A stretch of DNA of 64,000 nucleotides from assembly GCA_965113315.1 (NCBI GenBank), contig OZ220366.1; one strand, given 5' to 3'. A program made the translations under genes and the position numbers. The notes beneath the pieces were generated by a model that saw only the letters and a program-made list of their open reading frames with translations, was not told the DNA's origin and made no database searches. Source of the stretch: Podarcis vaucheri (Eukaryota). This document shows, in pieces, positions 3,354-48,149 of this stretch (positions are counted from its first letter, which is position 1; every line of letters begins with the position of its first letter).

Positions 3354-3597
3354 GAGAGCCAGTGTGGTGTAGTGGTTAAGAGCGGTAGCCTTGTAATCTC
3401 GGGAACCGGGTTCTCGTCTCCGCTCCTCCACATGCAGCTGCTGGGTGACCTTGGGCCAGTCACACTTCTGTGAAGTCTCTCAGCCCCACTCACCTCACAG
3501 AGTGTTTGTTGTGGGGGAGGAAGGGAAAGGAGAATGTTAGCCGCTTTGAGACTCCTTAAAGGGAGTGAAAGGTGGGATATCAAATCCAAACTCTTCT
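3354..3597 (+). mobile_element. tRNA-derived SINE, Squam3-like (Ther1/MIR-related), copy 1
   Basis: GAGAGCCAGTGTGGTGTAGTGGTTAAGAGC head, core gggtgaccttgggccagtcac, and a 3' tail tatcaaatccaaactcttct. Confidence 0.85.
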
Positions 3598-3737
3598 TTT
3601 TCGTCTAAGCTATCCTCTCCCTGGATCTAGAAGAAACTTTCTGAACATGGTGCCTGCTAGATGTTGTTAGACTACAACAATCACCAGCCCCTGCTAGCGG
3701 GCATCAGGTTGAGGATGGCTGAACTAGTCTAGCTCTT

Positions 3738-3982
3738 GAGAGCCAGTGTGGTGTAGTGGTTAAGAGCGGTAGCCTTGTAATCTCGGGAACCGGGTTCGCG
3801 TCTCCGCTCCTCCACATGCAGCTGCTGGGTGACCTTGGGCCAGTCACACTTCTCTGAAGTCTCTCAGCCCCACTCACCTCACAGAGTGTTTGTTGTGGGG
3901 GAGGAAGGGAAAGGAGAATGTTAGCCGCTTTGAGACTCCTTAAAGGGAGTGAAAGGCAGGATATCAAATCCAAACTCTTCTT
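3738..3982 (+). mobile_element. tRNA-derived SINE, Squam3-like, copy 2
   Basis: Near-identical to 3354-3597 (4 differences counted by eye). Confidence 0.85.
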
Positions 3983-4825: not shown

Positions 4826-4881
4826 TGCTAGTGATGCTCTTAAAGGAGAAGGTTTGCAAGAAGGTGTAGACTGGCTTCAAG
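4826..4881 (+). CDS. ARL6: ARL6 coding exon (56 bp)
   Basis: ttttag|T GCT AGT GAT...CTT CAA G|gtacat. Encodes (C)ASDALKGEGLQEGVDWLQ; phase fits the preceding exon. Confidence 0.97.
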
Positions 4882-4986
4882 GTACATTTCATCATGCTTT
4901 GCATTACCAGCTTCCCTTTTCCATTCATTTTGTAGTCTTTTCTGTCATTTCATTTTGCTTTTCCCTCAATCTATTTTTGCTATCAG

Positions 4987-4999
4987 ATCAGATTACACA
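4987..4999 (+). CDS. ARL6: ARL6 13-nt alternative microexon (BBS3L-type long isoform)
   Basis: Pyrimidine tract, then tgctatcag|ATCAGATTACACA|gtgagt. Inclusion shifts the last exon to give DQITQSDPGNEDMKNQ*, resembling the recalled human BBS3L C-terminus (..IQSDPDCEDMKR). Confidence 0.85.
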
Positions 5000-5530
5000 G
5001 TGAGTATACTCATCAAACTTGGCTATTTGGATCCCTGTGTGTTACACTTTATATTTTTAGCAAAAATACCTCCCTTTAAAACTTCCCATTTAAATTAAGC
5101 AAATATATGGACAGTATTGTTACTCCTAAATTAAGACTAAGAAATAGTGCTTGTGGTCTGAGTACAATGCTATAAGCGTGGAATGTATGATTCTTTTATT
5201 TGTTTACAACAGAAAGCAAGTAGCATTATGATGTAGATTACAAAAAGCTAAAGCATTTAGTAAAATATGGCAGCTTTTATGCTGTGCATACCAGAGAATT
5301 TTCAAAATGACTAGATGATTTCTAGGTCTAGAGATAATTGCATTTTCAAGTCTCATTCTCGCTGTCTGCTCTCGTTGACTGAATGAGTCTTGAGAAGTTT
5401 TATGCAGCATTCAAGCATCCCACATTATTATCCTCCACTATCCTTTGGTGTAAGTTATCATAATTAATGTTTAATATCTACCATTGTTTGGGCTTTAATA
5501 GTGATACTGTCTCTCTTCATTTAATTTATT

Positions 5531-5610
5531 ATGATGATGATGATGATGATGATTATTATTATTATTATTATTATTATTTAAATGCCACCCATCTGACTGG
5601 GTTGCCCCAT
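5531..5610 (-). repeat. (GAT)n(TAT)n microsatellite joined to a very short L2 3'-end remnant
   Basis: The repeat run is followed by cacccatctgactgggttgcccc, similar to the L2 3' end at 8887-8915. Confidence 0.65.
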
Positions 5611-5987
5611 AACACATTATTTAGTAAATAAATTAATTTATATAATCAACATTTATTTTTATTCCAATGATCACTGTTTTGGAATGGAATATTCTTATAG
5701 GAAATTACTGGTTTACATAGAGTGGCAAGCTCTTTTGCATGCTTTTTAGAAGCTTTGCTCTAAGCTTTGGCCTTAGTTGAGTACAGTGTTTTATTTAAAA
5801 TACACCGCTAGATGTCAGCAGAGACTAAAAGATGAGAGGCAGAGAAGCACCATTTAGTATATTGGCTGTGTGAAGATCCATGTTTACACACTGTAGTGCT
5901 GATCCATAAGAACATTTCTATGAAGGAGGCGCAGGTTATAGTTTATATTTCAAGGCTCTATAAAATAGCTCAGAAGCCTTAATACTA

Positions 5988-6222
5988 CAGTGGTACCTCA
6001 GGTTACAGACACTTCAGGTTACAGACACTTCAAGGTTATAGACTCCACTAACCCAGAAATATTACCTCGGGTTAAGAACTTTGCTTCAGGATGAGAACAG
6101 AAATTGCGCAGCGGCGGCAGCGGTAGGCCCCATTAGCTAAAGTGGTACTTCAGGTTAAGAACAGTTTCAGGTTAAGAATGGATCTCCAGAACAAATTAAG
6201 TTCTTAACCCGAGGTACCACTG
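5988..6222. mobile_element. Tigger-like MITE, CAGGTTA family
   Basis: TA|CAGTGGTACCTC...GAGGTACCACTG|TA terminal inverted repeats with TA duplication; homologous to 12769, 14518, 29463 and 48840. Confidence 0.92.
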
Positions 6223-6246
6223 TACTAGAATTCTGTGGCGAATATA

Positions 6247-6504
6247 CCGTATTTTTCGTTCTATAAGACGCACCAGACCACAAGAGGCACCTAGTTTTTG
6301 GAGGAGGAAAACAAGAGAAAAAAAATTTGAATCTCAGAAGCCAAAACAGCAAGAGGGATCGCTGCACAGTGAAAGCAACAATCCCTCTTGCTGTTCTGGC
6401 TTCTGTGATAGCTGCGCAGTCTGCATTCGCTCCATAAGACCCACACACATTTCTCCTTACTTTTTAGGAGGGAAAAAGTGAGTCTTATAGAGCAAGAAAT
6501 ACGG
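6247..6504. mobile_element. Tc1/mariner-superfamily MITE with CCGTATTT termini
   Basis: TA|CCGTATTTTTCGTTCTATAAGAC...GTCTTATAGAGCAAGAAATACGG|TA; related copy at 60407-60818. Confidence 0.88.
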
Positions 6505-6554
6505 TAATTAAATAAAAACAGCATTTTAACATCAACTTTATTTGTTTTACCTAG

Positions 6555-6591
6555 ATCAGATCCAGGCAATGAAGACATGAAAAACCAATGA
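6555..6591 (+). CDS. ARL6: ARL6 terminal coding exon; short isoform stops at 6578-6580 (DQIQAMKT*), long isoform at 6589-6591
   Basis: ttttacctag|ATCAGATCCAGGCAATGAAGACATGA AAAACCAATGA; human short C-terminus recalled as DQIQTVKT. Confidence 0.95.
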
Positions 6592-7134
6592 GTTATGAAA
6601 ATGTCATAAAGATAATTTCTAGATGTACATGATGACCTCTTGAAGATGAAGACTTTTTATAGGTCTGTTTTCTTCTGTTGGCTTTTATAAAAGCCCAATA
6701 AAAAAATAATAAATATTTTTGTAACAAAATGTAGTAGCTCAAATGCACATTCATCATACTGAAGGAAAAAATACATGTGGTTTGGTAGAATAATAAAATC
6801 ATTGTATGTAGTCTAAAAATGCTGGTGGATTTTTGAGTTAGGGGCTCAAGAGATCACATTTGACTTCCTGATTGTGCTCACCACAGTGTTTCATTCAAAA
6901 ATATGCAGTGAGATGGACCTTTACCAGAATGTAAAAGTTTTCTCTTGCTTAGAAAACAGCTATTTAAATTTTACACACCATATTTCAGTAAAAATTTGGT
7001 TGAATGCGTTTACTCCGAGCCTGCATGCAATCCTGTATTTTTATAAGCAGTTGTGGATGTTTATGAATAATATGTACTGTTGATATGTACTGGACTATAT
7101 TGTGTTCTATAAGAAGTGAAACAATATTTTCATA

Positions 7135-7140
7135 AATAAA
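7135..7140 (+). terminator. Candidate ARL6 polyadenylation signal (one of several AATAAA in the AT-rich 3' UTR)
   Basis: AATAAA about 550 nt after the stop; other AATAAA hexamers lie near 6697-6712 and 6792. The one actually used cannot be determined from sequence. Confidence 0.35.
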
Positions 7141-8844: not shown

Positions 8845-11431
8845 AATAATAATAATAATATAATAATAATAATTTATTATTTATACCCCGCCCATCTGGC
8901 TGGGCCTCCCCAGCCACTCTGGGCGGCTTCCATAAGAACCAAAAATACAATAAAATATCACACGTTAAAAACTTCCCTGAACAGGGCTGCCTTAAGATGT
9001 CTCCTGAATGTCAGGTAGTTGTTTATCGCCTTGACATCTGCTGGAAGGGTGTTCCACAGGGCGGGCGCCACTACCGAGAAGGCCCTCTGCCTGGTTCCCT
9101 GTAGCTTTGCTTCTCGCAATGAGGGAACCGCCAGAAGGCCCTCGGCGCTGGACCTCAGCGTCCGGGCAGAATGATGGGGGTGGAGACGCTCCTTCAGGTA
9201 TACTGGACCGAGGCCGTTTAGGGCTTTAAAGGTCAGCACCAACACTTTGAATTGTGCTCGGAAACGTACTGGGAGCCAATGCAGGTCTTTCAAGACCGGT
9301 GTTATATGGTCTCGGCGGCCGCTCCCAGTCACCAGTCTAGCTGCCGCATTCTGGATTAGTTGTAGTTTCCGAGTCACCTTCAAAGGTAGCCCCACGTAGA
9401 GTGCATTGCAGTAGTCCAAGCGGGAGATAACCAGAGCATGCACCACTCTCGCGAGACAGTCCGCAGGCAGATAGGGTCTCAGCCTACGTACCAGATGGAG
9501 CTGGTAAACAGCTGCCCTGGACACAGATTTGACCTGTGCCTCCATGGACAGCTGTGAGTCCAAAATGACTCCCAGGCTGCGCACCTGGTCCTTCAGGGGC
9601 ACAGTTACCCCATTCAGGACCAGGGAATCCTCCACACCTGCCCGCCTTCTGTCCCCCAAGAACAGTACTTCTGTCTTGTCAGGATTCAACCTCAATCTGT
9701 TAGCCGCCATCCATCCTCCAACCGCCTCCAGACACTCACACAGGACCTTCACCGCCTTCACTGGTTCTGATTTAAAAGAGAGGTAGAGCTGGGTATCATC
9801 CGCATACTGATGAACACCCAGCCCAAACCTCCTGATGATCTCTCCCAGCGGCCGCATGTAGATGTTGAAAAGCATGGGGGAGAGGACAGAACCCTGAGGC
9901 ACCCCACAAGTGAGAGCCCAGGGGTCTGAACACTCATCCCCCACCACCACTTTCTGAACACGGCCCAGGAGGAAGGAGCGGAACCACTGTATAACAGTGC
10001 CCCCAGCTCCCAGCCCCTCAAGACGGTCCAGAAGGATGCTATGGTCGATGGTATCGAACGCCGCTGAGAGATCCAGCAGAACTAGGAAACAGCTCTCACC
10101 TTTGTCCCTAGCCCGCCGGAGATCATCAACCAGTGCGACCAAGGCAGTTTCAGTCCCATGATGAGGCCTGAATCCCGACTGGAAGGGATCCAAATGGTCC
10201 GCTTCTTCCAGGCGTGCCTGGAGTTGTTCGGCAACCGCTCGCTCAATCACCTTGCCCAGGAATGGAAGATTTGAGACTGGGCGATAGTTGGCCATCGTGG
10301 CCGCATCTAGAGATGGTTTTTTAAGAAGCGGTTTAATAACCGCCTCTTTCAGCGGGTCTGGGAAGGCCCCCTCACGGAGGGAAGCATTCACCACCCCACG
10401 AAGCCCATCGCCCAGCCCTTCCCGGCTTGCTTTTATTAGCCAGGATGGGCAAGGATCCAGGAGACAGGTGGTTGGTTTCACTCGTCCAAGCAGCCTGTCC
10501 ACATCCTCGGAGGCAACAGATTGGAATTGATCCCACTCAACTTGACCAGACAGAACTCTTGCACTCTCCCGCCCCAGCCCTGCTCCCACGGTGGAGTCTA
10601 CTTCTTCCCGAATCTGAGCGGTTTTATCTGCAAAAAACTTTGCAAAATCATTGCAGGAGAACATGTGGCCCGTACTGGGCCCCGATGTTGCAGGTGGTTC
10701 CGCTAAATTGTGAACCACCTGAAAAAGTCTCCTGCTGCTGTTTTCTGCAGATGCAATAGAGGCGGTGAAGAAATTCTTCTTCGCCGTTGCTATCGCCACT
10801 TGGTAGGCTCGACGTTGAGCTCTAACCTGTGTCCGGTCAGATTCGGAATGAGTTCTCCGCCACCGGCGCTCTAGCCGTCTCAACGATTGTTTCATTGCCC
10901 TCAGATCCGTGGAAAACCACGGGGCTGTCCGGGCTCCATGCAATCGGAGAGGGCGCTTCGGAGCCAAACAGTCAATAGCCCTGGTTAACTCCACATTCCA
11001 GCGGGCCACCAGGGAATCAGCTGAAAGGCCATCAACATGGGATAAAGCATCCCCTACCACTCTCTGGAAACCATTTGGATCCATTAAGTGGCGGGGGCGG
11101 ACCATCCGAATTGGTCCCACCTCCCTGCAGAGGGGATGGGTCGCAGAGAAGTCCAGTTGCACCAGGAAGTGATCTGACCATGGCACTTCTTTCGTTTCGC
11201 TTTTACTTAGTGTCAGATCACCAACATCCATAGAGGTAAACACCAGGTCCAAGGCATGTCCACGGCTATGGGTTGGGCCAGACTTATTCAGGGACAGCCC
11301 CATGGAGGCCATGCTTTCCACGAAGTCCCGAGCGGCCCCTTGTAAGGTCGTGTCGGCATGGATGTTAAAATCCCCTAGGACGACCAAGCTAGGTGTCTCC
11401 AGGAGAACATCCGCCACGACCTGAAGCAGCT
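8845..11431 (-). mobile_element. Young 5'-truncated L2-clade LINE with (TTA)n tail
   Basis: Uninterrupted ORF2 fragment with APE C-terminus (GDFN, HALDLVF, WSDH) and RT motifs (YRPVSNL, QSGFR, DLSAAFD, GVPQGSVLSP, YADD). It has an L2-type C-terminus (LQLIQNAAARL..LHWLP..RAFSVVAPALWN), a short 3' UTR and a microsatellite tail at 8845-8872. Confidence 0.93.
8958..11431 (-). CDS. L2 ORF2 (partial endonuclease plus complete reverse transcriptase), N-terminally truncated
   Basis: ORF track 8958..11453 (831 aa). The first few codons come from flanking DNA, so this copy cannot make a full ORF2. Confidence 0.85.
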
Positions 11432-12768
11432 GAAGCAACAATAAATTAAACATTTAAAAATACAAAGCCAAACTAAACAATTTCCACATAAATCACAACA
11501 AAATCTAAAATAAAGATACAAAAAACCCCAGCAACAACCACACAAACAAAACCCCAAACAGCATTCCAGCCCAAGAGTCTGTTCAGCAATCAACAATCAG
11601 CCTCAGCTTTTGTAGCTTGCAATCAGTCAGGGCTCCACCCTCCCAGGCCAGGTGGAAAAGGTCTGCAAGGCAGGAAGGCAGGTGGAAAAGGTCTGCAACC
11701 CAGGACTCACAGGCAAGATGGTCCATATTTGAACACCAAAGGTAATTAACACAGAAGTATGTTGGCATTGAATTTTAACCTTATACATAAGCTGAGTGAA
11801 CAATTATGTTTAGACCAAAAAAATAAATTGGAATTAGCTGTTTATGTTTTGAAATGTGTTGCTGTAAAAAGTTCAGTTATGACCCTTGCTTTCCAAAGGA
11901 CAAAAAAGTCTGAGTCAACTAAACATGTGGGCAATTTTGAAGCATTGTAAAACTCAGCCTGCCACAGCCTACCTGTCTTTAAAAGGAAGCAAGTTTCCTA
12001 ACTGCAAAAAGCAAAAAAAAAAAAAAAAAAAAGGTAAAGTAAATCTGTTGTACTAGGAAGACAGAATGTTCTAATTATAGAATCCTAACTTGTGATATGT
12101 GCTTTAATTTCTCCCATAAAACAGTGCCAGCCTAGAGGCACCCATGAATTTAATGCTTGTATTGCCTTAATTTTGTTTGTTGAAACATAATTCTAGGTTG
12201 TGACAAATCTGTTTACACATTTACTAACTTTTCCTGTGTAAAACCCAAAACCTTTTATGTCATATCTGGGTAAATGTTTTCTTCTGTGCTATTGATCCAA
12301 AGCATGATTTTCTGTCCCAGAGTGTGCTGGAGGCCTAATACAAAATCCTATGTTTTGCTGCTAGTGGTAACAGAGCATGGCTGAAGCTAAAATTGGGTTG
12401 CAATAAACTATTATTTATTTCAGAAAATTTATATACCACTTGATTGTAAACCACTTTAAGGGTTTAAAAACAACAGCAACAGACTATACACTATCATTAT
12501 CTGCAACACAGTCCTAAGTGTTTGTTTAACAGTAAGGCATCCTGATAAAATGAACCTGCACCCCTTTTTTTTTTTTGCCACTAACCCAATTGGTGAGGAA
12601 GGGGAATTCTGAGGACATCCCTTCTCTCTCCGTAACTTTAGGGCTCCAGTGCATGCAGCATGTAGCTGGATTTGAAACCACATGAATAGCGAAGGGTGAT
12701 ATCCAATGTTTGTCAAAGCAGACCCTATTAAGGAAATATGCATGGATGCTTGCTTCTGCATACTAGTA

Positions 12769-15560: not shown

Positions 15561-15779
15561 TGTAAATATAAAACCTGTGTAGGATCCAGGTGCATATTTT
15601 GGCAGGTGTTTTCAATGACGGAGCAGGTTCACCAAAAACCTGTGCCAAAATGACTTTAAAGTGCCACAAGGCTCCTCCTCTTTTCTTGCCCTGCTTGACT
15701 GCAAGGCAAGAGGCTTCAACAAGACTGGCTCTCTGTGAGGAAAAGTTGGGTGGGGTTTTTAAAAAAACATTTCAGTTTG

Positions 15780-16890
15780 GCGGCTGCGAGGCAGAGCTGT
15801 TTGGGAGGTCGCCCGCTTTGCCTCCGAGCGGAATGCAAGTCGCCTCCCCGTTCCCGCTGCCGCCGAGAAACCCACGCGCCTCGTGGTAACCATTGTTTTC
15901 TGTGCTGAGGGGAGGCTGTAACTCGACCGACCTGAAGTTCTTGGCAGAAGCGAGAGAGGGAGGCGGCTGCAGCAGCAGCAGCACCGGGAACGTCCTGCCC
16001 AACCCCGGGCCGAGAGGAGCCCATGCTCCGGCTGCCTGGGGAGAGAGAGGGCGGGCCGCGGAAGAAGGGGCGTGCTCGGGAAGCGGCCATGGCTCCTCCT
16101 CGTGGGCCGGGCGGCCGAGGGAGCCGTGCAGCGTTTCCCGCCTCCACAGGGGGCAGAAATCAGTGGCTGGCTGCTGCTCGGCATACTTCCTTTTCCCCGC
16201 GTCCTGCCGCTGGAGGACCGGACTAGAAACTTGGGAAAGAGGGCTGCTGCTGCGGCGAGCGCGGGAAGGGACCGAGGGGGAACAGCCGCCTCTCGCAGCC
16301 GCCAAAGCACGAGGAGGAGGAGGAAGGAGAGGGCAGCAGCAGCAGCAGCCCTCCTCGTTTTCTGCCGGTGCCGGGGAAGATGTCCGGCGGGAGCAGCCGA
16401 AGGAGAAGCGGCTCCTCCTGGCACAGCAGCTTCTCCCGACTTTTCTCCAGGAGCCCGTCCAAGGAGCAGGAGGCAGCGGGCACAGCAGCAGCTGCTCCTC
16501 CTCAGCAGCCGGGCGCACGCAGGTAGGGAAAGGGCGCGAGCAAGGCCGGCAGCGGCGGCTCGTCTTCTCCTTCCTTCCTCCCTTCCTTCCTTCCTTCTGG
16601 GCTCGGCTGAAGAAGTTGCTGCCCTTCGCGGGCGGGTGGTGGCGGCTCGGGCGCCTCAGCCCCTTCTTCGCGTTTCCCTCGTCCCCGGCCTTCCCCGCCG
16701 GTCCCAGCTCGTCTCTGTCGCGGCGCCCCATCGCTGGGCGACAGAAGCAGCTGTCTTGCTGCTGGGACTGGCGGGGGCAAGTGCGCGCGGCTGTGGGCGA
16801 AAGTGGCATTTCCTGGTGGTACAACACGGCCAAACCGTGCGGGCAGGACGCTTCTTCGCCGCAAAAGAGTGTGTGCTGGGCGGGTTGAAT
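15780..16890. promoter_or_regulatory. CRYBG3: CpG island: promoter, 5' UTR and exon 1 of CRYBG3
   Basis: Abrupt GC- and CpG-rich block with GC boxes (gggcgg) and short CAG runs, enclosing the CRYBG3 start codon. Confidence 0.9.
16380..16522 (+). CDS. CRYBG3: CRYBG3 exon 1 (coding part, 143 bp)
   Basis: ATG TCC GGC...CGC AG|gtaggg. Encodes MSGGSSRRRSGSSWHSSFSRLFSRSPSKEQE..., resembling the recalled human [29 protein letters not shown]. Not listed in the ORF track. Confidence 0.92.
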
Positions 16891-19557
16891 GAGACTGGAT
16901 CCCCCCCCCCCGGGTCATTCGAGTCCACTGCCTTATTTCCTTTCGAGCTCTTTCTTTCCCCTCCTACTTTCCCAAAGAAATCAGAGTTGGACCCGATTTC
17001 GATTTCAAGCACTTTCTCATTTTGGAACAAAGCATTTGCCATGAGGCATTCTAGTCAGAAGGCGGTGACCTTAACGTGGCACTCCAGATGTCACTTGCAA
17101 AAAGGGAGTTCGTGGGGACTGACAGGGCAAGCGATGTCTTTCAGATCAGTATATATATTTTTGGTGAACTGCCTTTGGGTCGTGAGTTGTGATGGGCAGT
17201 ATGTAAATATTCTAAAAATAAATAAATCTATTACTCCAGCAGTTAACAATTACTGGCAAGCACATCTCTGAGGTTGAGCATTCTGAAGTAGTTGATATTC
17301 CATATGGATGCCCTTAAAGTTCACTTCCTATAAAAGCAACTTCCCCCCTCCTCTCCTGCCAAGCAATTCTGACTGAAGAAGTACAGTATAGCTGCCATCC
17401 TAGACATGCTTTCCTGGGAATAAGCTCCCTTTAAAGCAGCAACTTGCATCCTGCTAAACATGCGTGGGACTGTGCTACAGCAACATAACACAACTTTTAG
17501 TAAAGTAACATAATTTTGAATCTCTGTTAGGAATAACTTTTCTCACATACAGGAAATGCAGAGGTTCTCTGTAGAAACTAATTACTGTGCAATTATTTGT
17601 AATCACATTCCAGAGTCTGAGTTAACCTAGTCCTATTACAAACCTCCTGACCAAGCCCACAAAATACTGTACTATGAAACTGCTTTACTTTAGCATACAG
17701 TAGCCCCTCATTTCACATGCATTTGACTTGTGTCAATACGCAGTTAGAGGTGGGCTGGTTGAAATTGTGCAAGTCAAGTCTCAAGGAAGGCAGAGGATTT
17801 TAAAGTTCTTTTTGAACCAGGTTGCCCAAGCAGACCAAGCAGTGAGAAAGGAGCTTTTAAGCTCTTTGCCTTTCTTGCTGGGAAAGGCCCACTTGGTGCA
17901 TTGGTGCTGAGAGTGCTCTCTTTCCCTTCACCCACTAGCCACAGGGCAACTGAAGAGGTTTGACTATATGTGATCTACATGCATACGTGGGAACCTTGGA
18001 ACCGAACCTGCACATAAGATGAACTATGTATTAGACCTCTCCACGTTGCTTCATCTGGTGAATAAGCAGGTGTATATCTTTAAATGGGGTTTTAAATGTT
18101 TATTCTGGATTTTAGCTAAACCATAATTAGAATCAAGTGTTTTTGTTGGTTAAAATGAAGGAATAATTCCTTCACAGAAATATATTTTTGTTTCTGGCTT
18201 TGGCCATTTATTGTACAGGAAGTTGTAAGCCATTTGGCATCTTGTCTTGGTTTTTGTTGAGCAATGAGTCCTCTTAAGGTATGACAAATAATAAGATGGA
18301 AGATTTCCTAGATTATTAAACAATGTAAACAAAAACATTGTTTGTTTAGGAAACATGCCACAGATTGGCTTGTAGTACTGGTGCTACTATAAGTTGGAAA
18401 ATTTTCTCTTGTGTGTAAAATAGAAGAAGAATGTGGAATAAACTTGTTCTGAATTGCACTGGACACATTTCTGCTTAAAATTGCATATGACTTAGTCCCT
18501 TATATCCATCAAGTTCATTATGAATAGGATGCACGTCTATCTCAACTGTGTGTAAATCTCCCTGGTTTACTGATTACTATCTCCAGAAGTAAATAGTCTT
18601 GACACCTTGCTGGGTTCCTTCATGAGGAAGGGCATAGTATAGAGTGAATAAATGAATAATAATAATACAGTAATAGTAATATCACTGCAGTGGTGTAGAG
18701 AGTTAAAAGTTTTCATTTATTTTCATTGACCAAATGTAGCCTACTATATATGAATGTTTAAAGTGACACAGTATGAGTACTGAACTCCTCCCTACCACAG
18801 CATGTACATTAGATGAAAGTTTTAAGACAATATGTGCAGTGTTAATGAGCCCTTTACAGTCTTGGGAGACTGTCATTTGATTCAGAATGTGATAATAGAT
18901 TTTCCACTGTATAGCAGGTTTGGATGTGGTAAAGATATGTTATGTACATGAACTATGTGTTTATAGTTGTAGCATATGAGTGATGTAGACTGATTATGTG
19001 GGCTTTATTTATAAATATTTCTAGGTGGCTTGCAACATAAAAACACAAAAGCCATTAAGGCAACAGAAGATAAACACTACCAAGTATTTATGAGACAGTG
19101 CTGTCTTAAATTGAATGTTAAAACCATATCTGCATTTAATAACTGTTTTATTAGAATAAAGTTTATACTTTTGGATTCTAATTAACTATTGTTGTCTAAT
19201 AAACATTTTCATGAATGGAATATTCATTTAGGTTATAGTTACAGTTAAATGCTTACCATAATCTCTTGCTATCCTTGACTCTCCCTCCTCTCCCCTCTAT
19301 TGTCTATTTTTTATCGTTGGCTTTTGGGGAATGGAACCGTCTTCTTTTTCAGTTTGCTACATGCACTTAAATGGATGTGCTGTACAAAAAATTAACAGTG
19401 ACCCACATCTATTGGCTGATATCCAACATTAATCTTAAGAGTACATCCGTTTATTCCAGCAGGTCTACTATGACTATAACTGAGTTGGATCTCACCCTTA
19501 GAGTAGAATAATTTAGTTACTGTGCATCAGATGGAATGCCCCCCCCCAAACCAGATA

Positions 19558-42360: not shown

Positions 42361-42516
42361 TTCAAAGTAGAAACATTGCTTTAGATTTTTGAAATAAAAG
42401 AGACCAGTGCCTATTGTACTAATCTTTCTGTGTCTGTTTAAAATTTCACTTTATATAACTGAGTATGCCTAGGAGCTTTTGCTAATGTTCCAATAATGAT
42501 ATTTCTTCTGTTCCAG

Positions 42517-45078
42517 GAAAACAGAATGTGAGCTGGGTGCACCTGCAGTTACTTATGCAACATATCGAGGTTCTGCAAGAATTAAGCAATTGCTTAAGAA
42601 ACAAGCGGAATTGGAGCAAGAAAAACAAACCTCAACCAGCATTAACAGCACTACAGCCAAAAACAAAGAAAACAGGACTGTAAGCCTTCCAGACTCAGAA
42701 ACTACTACAACAAAGAAAGAATCTTCGTTGAAAACAAACTCGGGACCTAAGACTAACGATGACACAAAGGATTCACAAGCAAACGTATTTTTGGCAGAAA
42801 TGGATTTGGGGGGAAATTCTCTGGATGTCTTGGGCAATTGTGAGCACAAAGAACTGAAGAACAAAATTACCTTGTTGACAGAAATGGAAACAATCAAAAA
42901 TTGCATTGAGGAACTGGTTTCTGTGAAACATACAGCAGTTTCCAGCACACCAGAACTTAATAGGAACCTTCTGTTGAAAGCCAATTTCAGTTGCCAGAAT
43001 AGAGATGCTGTTAGTATGAGTTCAGAAAATAGCAGATTGCTTGAAAATAGGGAGGAGGTGTTAGGGGAAATACAAATGGAGATTCAGTCAATCAATGCTA
43101 CCACTGTTGGCTTTCAAAAAGGAATGCAGTTTTGCGCTTTTTCTAACACAGAAACAAAAGAGACAATGCAAGAGGAGTTTTTTTCGCACCCCAAAGTAGA
43201 CTTAGGTGATAATGAGCAACAGTTGCTAGAAAACAAAGGTCCCTGCAATAGTTGGACTGGGGATCAATTCAAACTAAAAGAGAACCAAACATTGCATTTG
43301 AATAGTATTATAGGTAGGGGACAGGCAGTTAGCAGGGTAGAAAGTGAAACTGAAGAATCACACCAAAAAGTGACAGAGCAGAACGAGAAAAACATGCAGA
43401 TCATTTCACCAGATGGGCACTTACCTCTCCACGAACAAAAAGTTGGAGAAGAAATGCAGTTGGTGTTGCAGGATACAAATTGCAAAAAAGGTGATATATC
43501 AGCAGGAGTCGGTATGCTTGCTTCAGTCCAATCCAAAGAAATGGTTCAAAATGTAGATATATTTGGCAAAAGCGATCTAAAGTGTGAAGAGGCCACTGAG
43601 CCCATTGTACTTACAGATACACAAAACAATCATAACTTCCCCATGACGTCTGAGAATGGAACTAATAATTTTACCAATGATAATTTGTATGTGCCTGTGA
43701 CACAATTTGACCATGTTAGAATGACAGGTGCTTCTCCTAACACAACTGAGGTAAACCATGCCAACACATCCTTGTTAGCTGCTGAATATGAAAATGTGGT
43801 GTCTCGGGTGGCATCAGCTTTCTTAGAAACAGGTGGTACCAGCACTGAGGAGGCTGTGGGCACTATGGATGGTGCCCGTCTTATCCTTGAGGCTAAAGAT
43901 GACAACTGCCATATTTCTGAGAGAGTTGAGGATGAAACTCTGATCGAAACATTGACTGGTTTACATAGTCCTCTTCCTCTCGCTGAAGACAAAACCAAGC
44001 CCATCAAATTAGAGAACTCAGAACTTAAAAGCAACACAGGCACTACTACAGTGGCCAAACCTATATCTGCACAAAAAAATGATCCATTAGTTGATGAAAT
44101 AAAAAATCAAACTGAAGCAAAAATGGCTTATGAAACTAAAGAGGACATCTCAATAGGTCTACCTCCTGTCTCTTCTTCTAAAGAGGCATGCTTCCCCGAG
44201 ATCTCTCCTCCTGTTGTGAAATCAGAAGAAAATAGTTATTTATCATTTCCTTCTTCTCCGTTACGTGTCTTGGTCAGTAACTCTTTCATCTCTGGAGATA
44301 GCAAAATCATTTTGGACGATGTGTCTAAACCCGTCCTTAATTCTGAAGATCACAGTTTGTTGGGGGCTTTGTGTTCTTTGGCTGATAAACAGGATTGCAC
44401 TAACCAGTCTCTAAGTGATTCTGCAGGGACTATCAATGGTCAAATATGTTGTTCTGCCTCTACATGTGAAACTAACCAAGTTATCTCAAAGTCAGAGGAC
44501 TGTGGACCTGCGAGCCTTCTTATTGCTGCTGAATTTGGGTGTGCAGGTCAAGTTCCTGGTACTTTTTTGGAATCTGAAAGCATTCCTGAAACTAATATTA
44601 CCTTTGACACAGCTGAAATTGCTGATAGTAGAAGTGAGATTTTACTGCGCTCTGAAGAAATGAAGGATATGTCTGCCTCTTGCTTGGTAGACTCTAGATC
44701 TAACCTGGCAAAAGAGGATCTTCCTGTTTCTACATTTGAAAATGTATATACTTTCAAGCCTGTGTCACCCATTACATGCTTTAAAGATAGCTCAAAGCTT
44801 AGTTCTCCTGCCTGTGAAACATCAGATTTTGTTTTAGACAAGAATCATTCTCTTCCTATTGATTCTGAAGAAAAGAAGGGCAAGGTTTCACCTAAATATA
44901 AACCAAATAGTCTACACTCTAAATCAGTGTCAGAAGCAGAGTACCCAGTCCCATTCTTGTCCCCAGTTGCCTGTGATGTGGAAGCTACAGGACCTGCAAA
45001 GATTGTACTAGGAATGTCTTTCACTACACAGCAGAGAAAAGAGGAGCAAAGAGCTTCAGGCCAGCTAAATCTTCACTA

Positions 45079-45109
<31 letters not shown>

Positions 45110-47290
45110 AATTCAAACACCTTTGAAATGGGTGATCAAGCAATTACAACTTTGTTTACAGAATCAAGCAGCCAGTTTTCCGAGGAAGCACTGAATGATG
45201 TTGAAACAGGAAGGCAAGTACAAATTAAATCCCAAGACTTAACTGTTTTGCTCCAAAAGGCTGATGAAATAGTTGATGCAGTTCTGCGTTTAGCCATAGA
45301 AGAAATAAGATCAAAGCAAGCAGCTGGCGTCTGCCAGCCTAATGACATTAAGGACAATTTATTAGGGCTCAGCCTTCAAAAAGATCAGAAAAATAGAAAA
45401 ATGCTGTCAGAATCAAAAGAAATGCAGTCAAGGAATTCATCATTAAAGCATTTTAATGAGGGTTGTATCAGAAAGCTTTCTGAAGTTAAAGCAAAAGACA
45501 CACTTGGCACAAATATTAAAGATGAAAAAATACCATTTGACATTACAGATAAAATTGACCTACATAGTTCAATAGCACTAAAAGCGAAAGAAATAATTGA
45601 TGATGTTATTAATGCAGCCATACGAAAAGTGACATATAATCAGCATGAGGACCATCTGAGCAATGGCATTCTTCAAAATTCAGCCCTTAAGTCCAACACT
45701 GAAGCATCAAAGAAGCTTACTACTGATACTGAATTAACAGCTAAACTTCCCAAAATAATTGAAGAACCTTTAAATTTAAGTCCAATATATGGAACTTCAG
45801 TATGCGATATAATCAGTGAAGGTAAAGTAGCAAACTCCTCAGCATCTTTGTATAGTAATATGAAAGACGACCACAAAGAAATAACAGGTGGAGAACAGAA
45901 AAATGAAAATGACTGGTCTGATCCCACAGCTACTATAGAATGCAGCCCTCCTATAGTCAATGGCAAAAACAGTAAACATGTCAATTGTACTATGTGCATG
46001 ACAGATGCCGGTGAGGAAACGAAGTGGACAATTGATGATAAATCTGAATATTCCTCATATTTAATAAATGAAGAAACTGTAATGGATGAAGTGCATTTTC
46101 CACCATTTGGACCTTTAGATTCACTTGGAAATAATGTAGGGAAGAATCTGCCTGAATATGTTTTTAAAGAGGGTGACTCTGCAGAAGTTGTAAGAGAGGA
46201 ACCATGTGAAAAATATTATGAAATAGAACGTGAAAAGGTCTGTGGTAAAATGATGAAAGCTTACGCAGTGCCTCAGAATGTTTGTAAATTTGGTACCCAG
46301 TTCAGTATGTCTGAACGGCCTGTAATGAACAGCTCAGCAAAGATTGGCTTGAACTCAGATTTTTCCTTTAAGAAAGAAGCAGTCGTTGAGACAGGTTTAA
46401 CAGTGCTCAAGGAATATTATCTGGATGTTGATGATGATTGTGGAAATGGAGAGAAATCCCCCAAGTTATTTGCTTCTTCTCCACCAGAAGAGTTGGACAG
46501 CAGTTCTTTCACCATTTTGTATGAAGGTGCTCTTCAAGATAATAGCTATTTCTTTTCAACAGAAGAACCAGATCATCCCTTATCATCCCCTCCTGACCAA
46601 TCCCTGGATAATAATCAACATTTTCTTATGTGTAAAACTGTAAAAGGCAAACTTGAGTCTGTCCACCCTTGTGAACAAAGCAGCCAATTAAACAATCTTT
46701 CTTCAGAAGCATTTGTGACAGTGGAAGCAAAGCGATTCAGTGTTTACCCTTTCTCTTTGTCTCCTATATATGAAGATGACAGTTCTCAAGAGGACTTGCT
46801 GTCCGCTGATGGCTCACCAGAAGGTAATCCTATTGAAAGAGCCAACCAATCCTTGTCAGTCTTATCACTTCTTCAGTCAGTGTCTGAACGGTTAAGATCT
46901 AGCAGCCAGTGTAATGACGAAGAGGAAGAGAATATTTGTGAAGAAAACAAACCAGAGGATGAAAAAGAATCATATCTTTCCAGTCAGGGGCCAAACAGCT
47001 TGTGCACAGCAGTCCCAGAAAACATTCATGAGAGGAGATACTCACATTTTCTTTCTAAGGAGGCACTTAACGCAGAAGAGACCTTATCTTTAAGTTCAGT
47101 GCCTTCAGCTCAGCTTTTACAAAAATCTGATCGTGGCATACGTTCTTCTTCAAAGAGTATATACTATGAAAGTCTGCAGAGTTCAAGAACTTATTCCAGC
47201 GAGAAGGGAACTCGATTTAGGAGTGTTTTGGTGCCAAAGGATCAGCAGCCTGAAAGTAGTGGCTTGCAAAAACCGGCAGCTTTTCAAGTG
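42517..47290 (+). CDS. CRYBG3: CRYBG3 exon 4, giant exon (4,774 bp) encoding the long low-complexity AKAP region
   Basis: ttccag|G AAA ACA...CAA GTG|gtaagg, open throughout. Conserved blocks include PAVTYATYRG, SSFTILYE, VEAKRFSVYPFSLSPIYEDDSSQEDLLS, SVLSLLQSVSERL and SSEKGTRF. Confidence 0.97.
45083..45109 (+). repeat. Coding (GCT)9 repeat, poly-Ala9
   Basis: Pure GCT run in frame within CRYBG3 exon 4. Confidence 0.95.
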
Positions 47291-48149
47291 GTAAGGTGCT
47301 TTTCATTAATTTTATATGTGTAATGAAACTATTAAATGAGCATAATGGGGTGGGGTTGTAGGTGTACATACACACATACATTTAGAGTATCCTATTTCAT
47401 GTCTTTGTGTGAGCGTGTTCAGTTTTAATTGTGCCAGACATTTCAGTTTTGGTTTTGTTACTAACACAGTTATTATTGGGGTTATGTTCACGTAATAATT
47501 AAGCTGAGGCAATAGGCATAAACACCAATCTTTGGGGTAAACACATTGTGGAGAGAGAGAATTTCTTATATTCACGGGCTATTGTCTGGGGGCAGTTTAC
47601 AGACATAGTGTGGAAAATTACATTCTTTCAGTTCACCCAGTGTAGAGGGGAATCACAGTACACTAGCCAGGTGAAAAGAAAGATGATGAATTTCACTTAG
47701 CAGAAATGCCTGTTCTTCCCCAGCAAGGTGAGGTAGGGTGAGGGAAGGAAACTTAATGCATGAATCTTAAAATAAGGGTAAGAATATATTGGCAGGTATG
47801 TTTATGTTTCCATGTGTGCTGCACCAAAGACGATGAGGACCCCTCATCTTCTATTGAATAATATGAGGGGAGTGTTTTGCATTAACATAAACAGCCACAC
47901 AGGTCAGGAATCATAGACTTACTAATGTTTAATCAACATTAGCTCCAGACACCTTTATGACAAATTTTAATGATGTCTCAAAAGTTCATTCTTTCTTAGG
48001 GCATCACCCATGTTTGTGCTGAAAGCTTTACAATCAGGTTTTTATTTGATATACCAATCTTGTATTTTAAAACACTTGTAATAAGTTTCCACACTAGCTT
48101 GTCAGCACTGATTTTCACCACTAATGAAAAATATTACTATTTAATTTAA

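Follow-up and report, generated by a model that had tools for sequence, protein, structure and literature searches.

A 13-bp exon of ARL6 that shifts the reading frame (PMC2841623) gives rise to the long BBS3L isoform, and the question raised by a lizard genome is whether this exon has been kept there, how its inclusion would be controlled and what it would do to the protein. We addressed this in a 64,000-nucleotide stretch of Podarcis vaucheri DNA (contig OZ220366.1; referred to below as the window), in which a preliminary description made from the sequence alone had proposed a 13-nt ARL6 microexon as the lizard counterpart of the BBS3L exon. Our reading is that positions 4987-4999 are very probably the squamate ARL6/BBS3L microexon, that photoreceptors are likely to be the main place of its inclusion, with SRRM3/4 probably acting at the upstream UGC, and that it would swap the tail of the protein.

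The ARL6 locus and its 13-nt exon

The exon at 2428-2557 retrieves ARL6 proteins with a best identity of 95% (to an agamid lizard), and the best 120 matches listed for it are mostly named ARL6. A search of the genome using tortoise ARL6 gave 12 matches, three of which are the ARL6 exons at this locus, and the remaining nine displayed 34-43% identity and are taken here to be other Arf-family genes. Further downstream, a large open reading frame of 4.8 kb on the plus strand (42500-47323) matches bird CRYBG3/very large AKAP (E 8e-38), and as there is a bird protein model in which ARL6 is fused with CRYBG3/very large AKAP, the neighbourhood also fits ARL6. A GC-rich stretch near 15760-17270 is probably the 5' end of the CRYBG3/very large AKAP gene. 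The ARL6 residues shared with snakes, taken with a tail that is not of the snake kind, fit a lizard source. Repeats are also seen in the region, with a LINE-type element on the minus strand whose 831-codon open frame (8958-11453) has a reverse-transcriptase domain and a partial endonuclease domain. Within ARL6 introns, examination by eye located two near-identical SINE-like repeats of ~240 nt (~3355-3600 and 3740-3980) and a GC-rich tandem array with a unit of ~90 nt (1-360).

Coding exons 1-4 (123, 62, 69 and 95 nt) lie upstream of the window and are followed on the plus strand by coding exon 5 (2428-2557; 130 nt), which covers the G4 motif region and has homologue matches and a Pfam Arf match, and by coding exon 6 (4826-4881; 56 nt), which ends in phase 1 in the C-terminal helix. 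All ARL6 exon borders are AG/GT, on both sides of the window start. The intron that follows (4882-4986) is only 105 nt long and 74% pyrimidine, and it is free of AG from -53 to the acceptor at 4985-4986. A TGC at -9 (4978-4980) is a candidate SRRM3/4 enhancer, with further TGC triplets at -31, -87 and -92, and YTNAY motif matches place branch-like adenines at -35 (4952), -60 and -96. The 13-nt exon (4987-4999) is followed by a GTGAGT donor (5000-5005) that agrees with the consensus at all six intronic positions. The coding part of the last exon lies at 6555-6591, and beyond it is the likely 3' UTR (6592-7140), with AATAAA at 6697, 6708, 6792 and 7135. On re-reading of the window, the positions first proposed for the exon, upstream intron, TGC, acceptor and donor were exact.

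Because 13 nt shifts the frame, two different stops are used in the last exon, at 6578-6580 when the microexon is skipped and at 6589-6591 when it is included, with predicted proteins of 186 and 194 aa, respectively. Translation of the skip and inclusion forms reproduced both of the C-terminal tails that had been described before. Two features of SRRM3/4-type microexons are found at this site, a length within 3-27 nt and a UGC between the pyrimidine tract and the AG, as are those of the BBS3L exon, namely ARL6 as host, a 13-nt AG/GT exon between the last two coding exons, and a frame shift that leads to a conserved long C-terminus.

Two other features of the locus were observed. ARL6 residue 136 (2484-2486), three after the NKMD nucleotide-binding motif, is a phenylalanine, while the 310 motif-bearing homologue rows have aspartate (291), glutamate (15), serine (2) or asparagine (2) at this position and phenylalanine in none; the change needs two base substitutions and may be lineage-specific, allelic or the result of misassembly. 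In addition, some snake and bird proteins (21 of the 349 homologues) are one residue longer at the junction of coding exons 2 and 3, but no 3-nt exon candidate for this form was detected in the 914-nt exon 2-3 intron of this lizard, which runs from ~3120 to ~2210 nt before the window start.

Regulation and proposed working of the microexon

The anatomy of the exon, its two reading frames and their conservation are observed directly at this locus, while retina-enriched inclusion, SRRM3/4 induction and the dependence of vision and opsin localisation on the long form are taken from orthologues. In human, mouse, chicken and zebrafish the ARL6 exon is reported as a retina-enriched 13-nt microexon (10.1101/2021.09.08.459463; PMC9303857), and the supplements of PMC9303857 give inclusion (PSI) in retina and other tissues of 88.8 and 3.8 in human, 96.4 and 2.0 in mouse, 89.9 and 1.4 in chicken, and 53.2 and 0.7 in zebrafish. 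Neural PSI in the same supplements is 13-27 in mouse, chicken and human, so the amniote exon is retina-enriched rather than retina-exclusive. High inclusion is likewise given for mouse photoreceptors in PMC4991804, where the exon is listed as 14 nt, contrary to the other sources. In zebrafish the long form is described as confined to the eye, and in mouse brain its level is given as low; the long form alone rescued zebrafish vision and green-opsin localisation, null mice had a mild retinal defect, and a need for it in photoreceptor organisation and vision is thus documented in zebrafish and, to a mild degree, in mouse (PMC2841623). With chicken as the nearest measured orthologue, retinal inclusion in this lizard is likely. 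Among 24 sequence-run rows, for which tissues are not given, none was recorded as RNA and 18 were guessed to be RNA; four runs of the guessed class, kept as contigs, were compared with the last exon and UTR and placed nothing in 4/4, a zero that can be false.

With respect to regulation, SRRM3/4 expression in human cell lines raised inclusion in 8/8 experiments, with a dPSI of +20 to +79 (PMC9303857 supplements). These sources (PMC2841623, 10.1101/2021.09.08.459463 and PMC9303857) agree with what the preliminary description had stated on the 13-bp human exon and on SRRM3/4. In the eyes of srrm3-mutant zebrafish inclusion was 59 compared with 67 at 5 dpf, with no fall at 60-72 hpf (PMC9303857), and this small effect indicates that SRRM3 alone is not required in vivo. 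Most SRRM3/4 targets, though not every one, have a UGC lying between the branch point and the AG, and the triplet is described as neither strictly required nor a predictor of sensitivity (10.1101/2024.09.17.613571). As a class, the SRRM3/4-regulated RetMICs share with the lizard exon a length of 3-27 nt, an upstream UGC, a pyrimidine-rich upstream intron and a ciliary host gene, although most RetMICs preserve the frame, unlike the lizard ARL6 exon and its human orthologue.

The weak effect of srrm3 loss in fish would also be expected if a genuine retinal exon were included in lizards mainly through Musashi or another photoreceptor factor, or if its inclusion were broadly neural, and the chicken neural PSI of 23 (PMC9303857) and the placement of the exon in a photoreceptor programme linked to Musashi (PMC4991804) are both in keeping with this. 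We consider it improbable, however, since MSI1 gave a dPSI of 0 on the human exon in 2/2 experiments (PMC9303857 supplements), UAG is not enriched by count here (the 400 nt that follow contain 8 TAG, compared with an expectation of 7.9), and the TGC has been kept at -9.

We therefore favour SRRM3/4-dependent inclusion in photoreceptors, which could work as follows. In most tissues the microexon would be skipped, and the last helix turn of ARL6 would be followed by only eight residues. In photoreceptors the UGC-containing acceptor would be recognised by SRRM3/4, likely acting redundantly, and the microexon would be included, so that the last exon is read in its second frame and the 8-residue tail is replaced by a more acidic tail of 16 residues. 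According to a table in PMC9303857 the insertion point sits within the C-terminal helix, so residues 1-178, which form the GTPase core, would be left untouched, and the new tail, starting after the last helix, would likely retune contacts with partners or membrane during BBSome-linked cargo transport through the photoreceptor cilium. In the homologues long tails have a mean net charge of -2.0 (44 distinct tails) compared with +0.35 for short tails (31), and a glutamate at tail position 11 is found in 40/44 distinct long tails; tail positions 5-6 were used in the long-tail filter and conservation there does not count. This acidity and the kept glutamate suggest a conserved contact in opsin transport through the connecting cilium. 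AlphaFold2 modelling of the tortoise long form with a 23-row alignment gave a mean pLDDT of 49, falling to ~30 at the last residues, which is too poor for use, and two solved ARL6 sequences align only as far as the end of the shared core.

Conservation of the site and of the long tail

We scanned the 4882-6554 intron, omitting 40 nt at either end, for AG..GT stretches of 3-30 nt, and only 2 of 160 passed a simple splice-site filter. Both share the donor at 5000-5005, being the 13-nt exon and an 8-nt version that begins at an inner AG. Similarly, a strict motif (pyrimidine fraction of at least 0.75, TGC, YAG, 3-27 nt, GTRAGT) was found once on the plus strand of the 64-kb window and not on the minus strand. 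As the thresholds of these scans were chosen after the site had been seen, the match across species is the stronger test.

Tails were classified in 349 homologous proteins, with 64 being of the long type, 146 short, 87 other (intron read-through or fused models) and 52 without the anchor motif. Fifteen long tails open with the same five residues as the microexon here, and belong to garter snake, turtles, birds, frogs and two killifish rows. Microexon-coded residues are identical in Thamnophis sirtalis X1 and X2 (P0153, P0147), Chrysemys picta X1 (P0013) and Gopherus evgoodei X1 (P0130), although these RefSeq isoforms are predicted models with no tissue stated. Over the whole tail, the lizard shares 13/15 positions with Thamnophis (P0147) and 13/16 with Chrysemys (P0013), differing at two or three residues, compared with 8/15 for chimpanzee (P0022). 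The DNA around the exon is also represented in protein models, as 11 of these read through the upstream intron, with the acceptor visible in one frame in four. In a passerine model of this kind (P0049), 9/11 residues match a non-coding frame at 4975-5007, spanning acceptor, exon and donor, and imply an upstream intron of 113 nt, while three mammal-type read-through rows imply one of 128-131 nt. A TGC at -9 is implied in both bird and mammal models.

When compared with the published BBS3L exon (PMC2841623; HsaEX0005873, MmuEX0006149, GgaEX2002902, DreEX0014775), the lizard exon lies in the same gene and at the same place before the last exon, and has the same 13-nt length, frame shift, similar long tail and short upstream intron. 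The mutagenesis oligonucleotide in PMC2841623 shows TGC at -9 in mouse, as in the lizard, and 6/13 nt of the mouse exon match, with two wild-type splice bases of that oligonucleotide being deduced. The residues coded by the lizard exon are unlike those of mammals but match those of birds, turtles and frogs, and its long form is one residue longer than the mammalian one (194 compared with 193 aa). Orthology with the BBS3L exon, which had been the central proposal for this site, is thus supported by agreement in host gene, position, length, frame, tail sequence and flanking signals.

Among the 26 squamate-named rows seen, two have the long tail, both from Thamnophis sirtalis, one (Laticauda) ends within the microexon peptide, and the long tail is present in 0/4 lizard-named rows among the matches listed; cluster listings held at most 15 members each, and such counts are not a census or proof of absence. 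Under the same scope, 6/6 cartilaginous-fish rows among the matches listed are short-tailed, and no lacertid-named ARL6 protein was found among the matches listed from homologue searches and clusters. The earlier suggestion that the exon is easily missed by annotation is in part borne out by the four lizard rows listed, but the exon is annotated in Thamnophis and turtles. Snake isoforms of 187 aa were considered as truncated versions of the long form and rejected, as their difference lies at another junction.

The four lizard rows would also suit a conserved relic that is disused in this lizard, yet we hold this to be very improbable given that the site is undamaged from acceptor through exon to donor, that the last exon keeps its second frame, and that all of these are nearly identical to their bird and snake counterparts. 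Least probable of all is a different use of the site. One such use would be an 8-nt exon (4992-4999) from the second AG, which passes the same splice-site filter; another would be a terminal exon with its stop inside the donor, giving 183 aa, in line with three database models (coelacanth, P0112; frog, P0134; sea krait, P0155) that terminate in the microexon peptide. The 8-nt form, however, would have a tail absent among the homologue tails listed, and the exon is catalogued at 13 nt in each of four species (PMC9303857), while for the truncated models the simplest explanation is an error of gene prediction, since the microexon starts like the last exon. Use of the second AG within the microexon (4990-4999) would give a protein of 186 aa with a different tail.

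Origin and meaning

Published work already covers the exon together with its isoform and regulation, and the exon is present in existing gene models of reptiles, with a possible origin by duplication being the one new hint; in the open-access text searched we found no paper on the BBS3L exon in lizards and no title on its origin. The first seven nt of the microexon (4987-4993) are the same as the first seven of the last exon (6555-6561), and 53/64 long tails begin D/E-Q-I/M, like the short tail. It is possible that the microexon arose when the start of the last exon was duplicated along with its acceptor, before the split of ray-finned fish and tetrapods, with its residues ancestral in non-mammals and rewritten only in mammals, and both the footprint of 7/13 nt retained in the lizard and the shared opening of the tails point in this direction. 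We put this forward tentatively and lean against it, because selection on the helix end could by itself yield such a pattern, no more than two of the seven shared bases fall at free third positions, and the microexon and last exon have dissimilar upstream flanks. If true, it would be a tidy example of a frame-shifting microexon that arose without damage to the last helix.

For the reading of 4987-4999 as the BBS3L microexon, the lizard branch is now filled in for a known blindness-gene isoform, and an exon is flagged that gene models can miss or misread as the last exon. In diurnal lizards cones dominate the retina, and a parietal eye is present in many of these animals. With an intact exon, such cone-rich species would be a natural place to test the cone-biased role proposed for the long form in PMC2841623. 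The shared seven-nt start can also make inclusion reads look like a 13-nt insertion in the last exon, and cause aligners and gene predictors to misplace the microexon.
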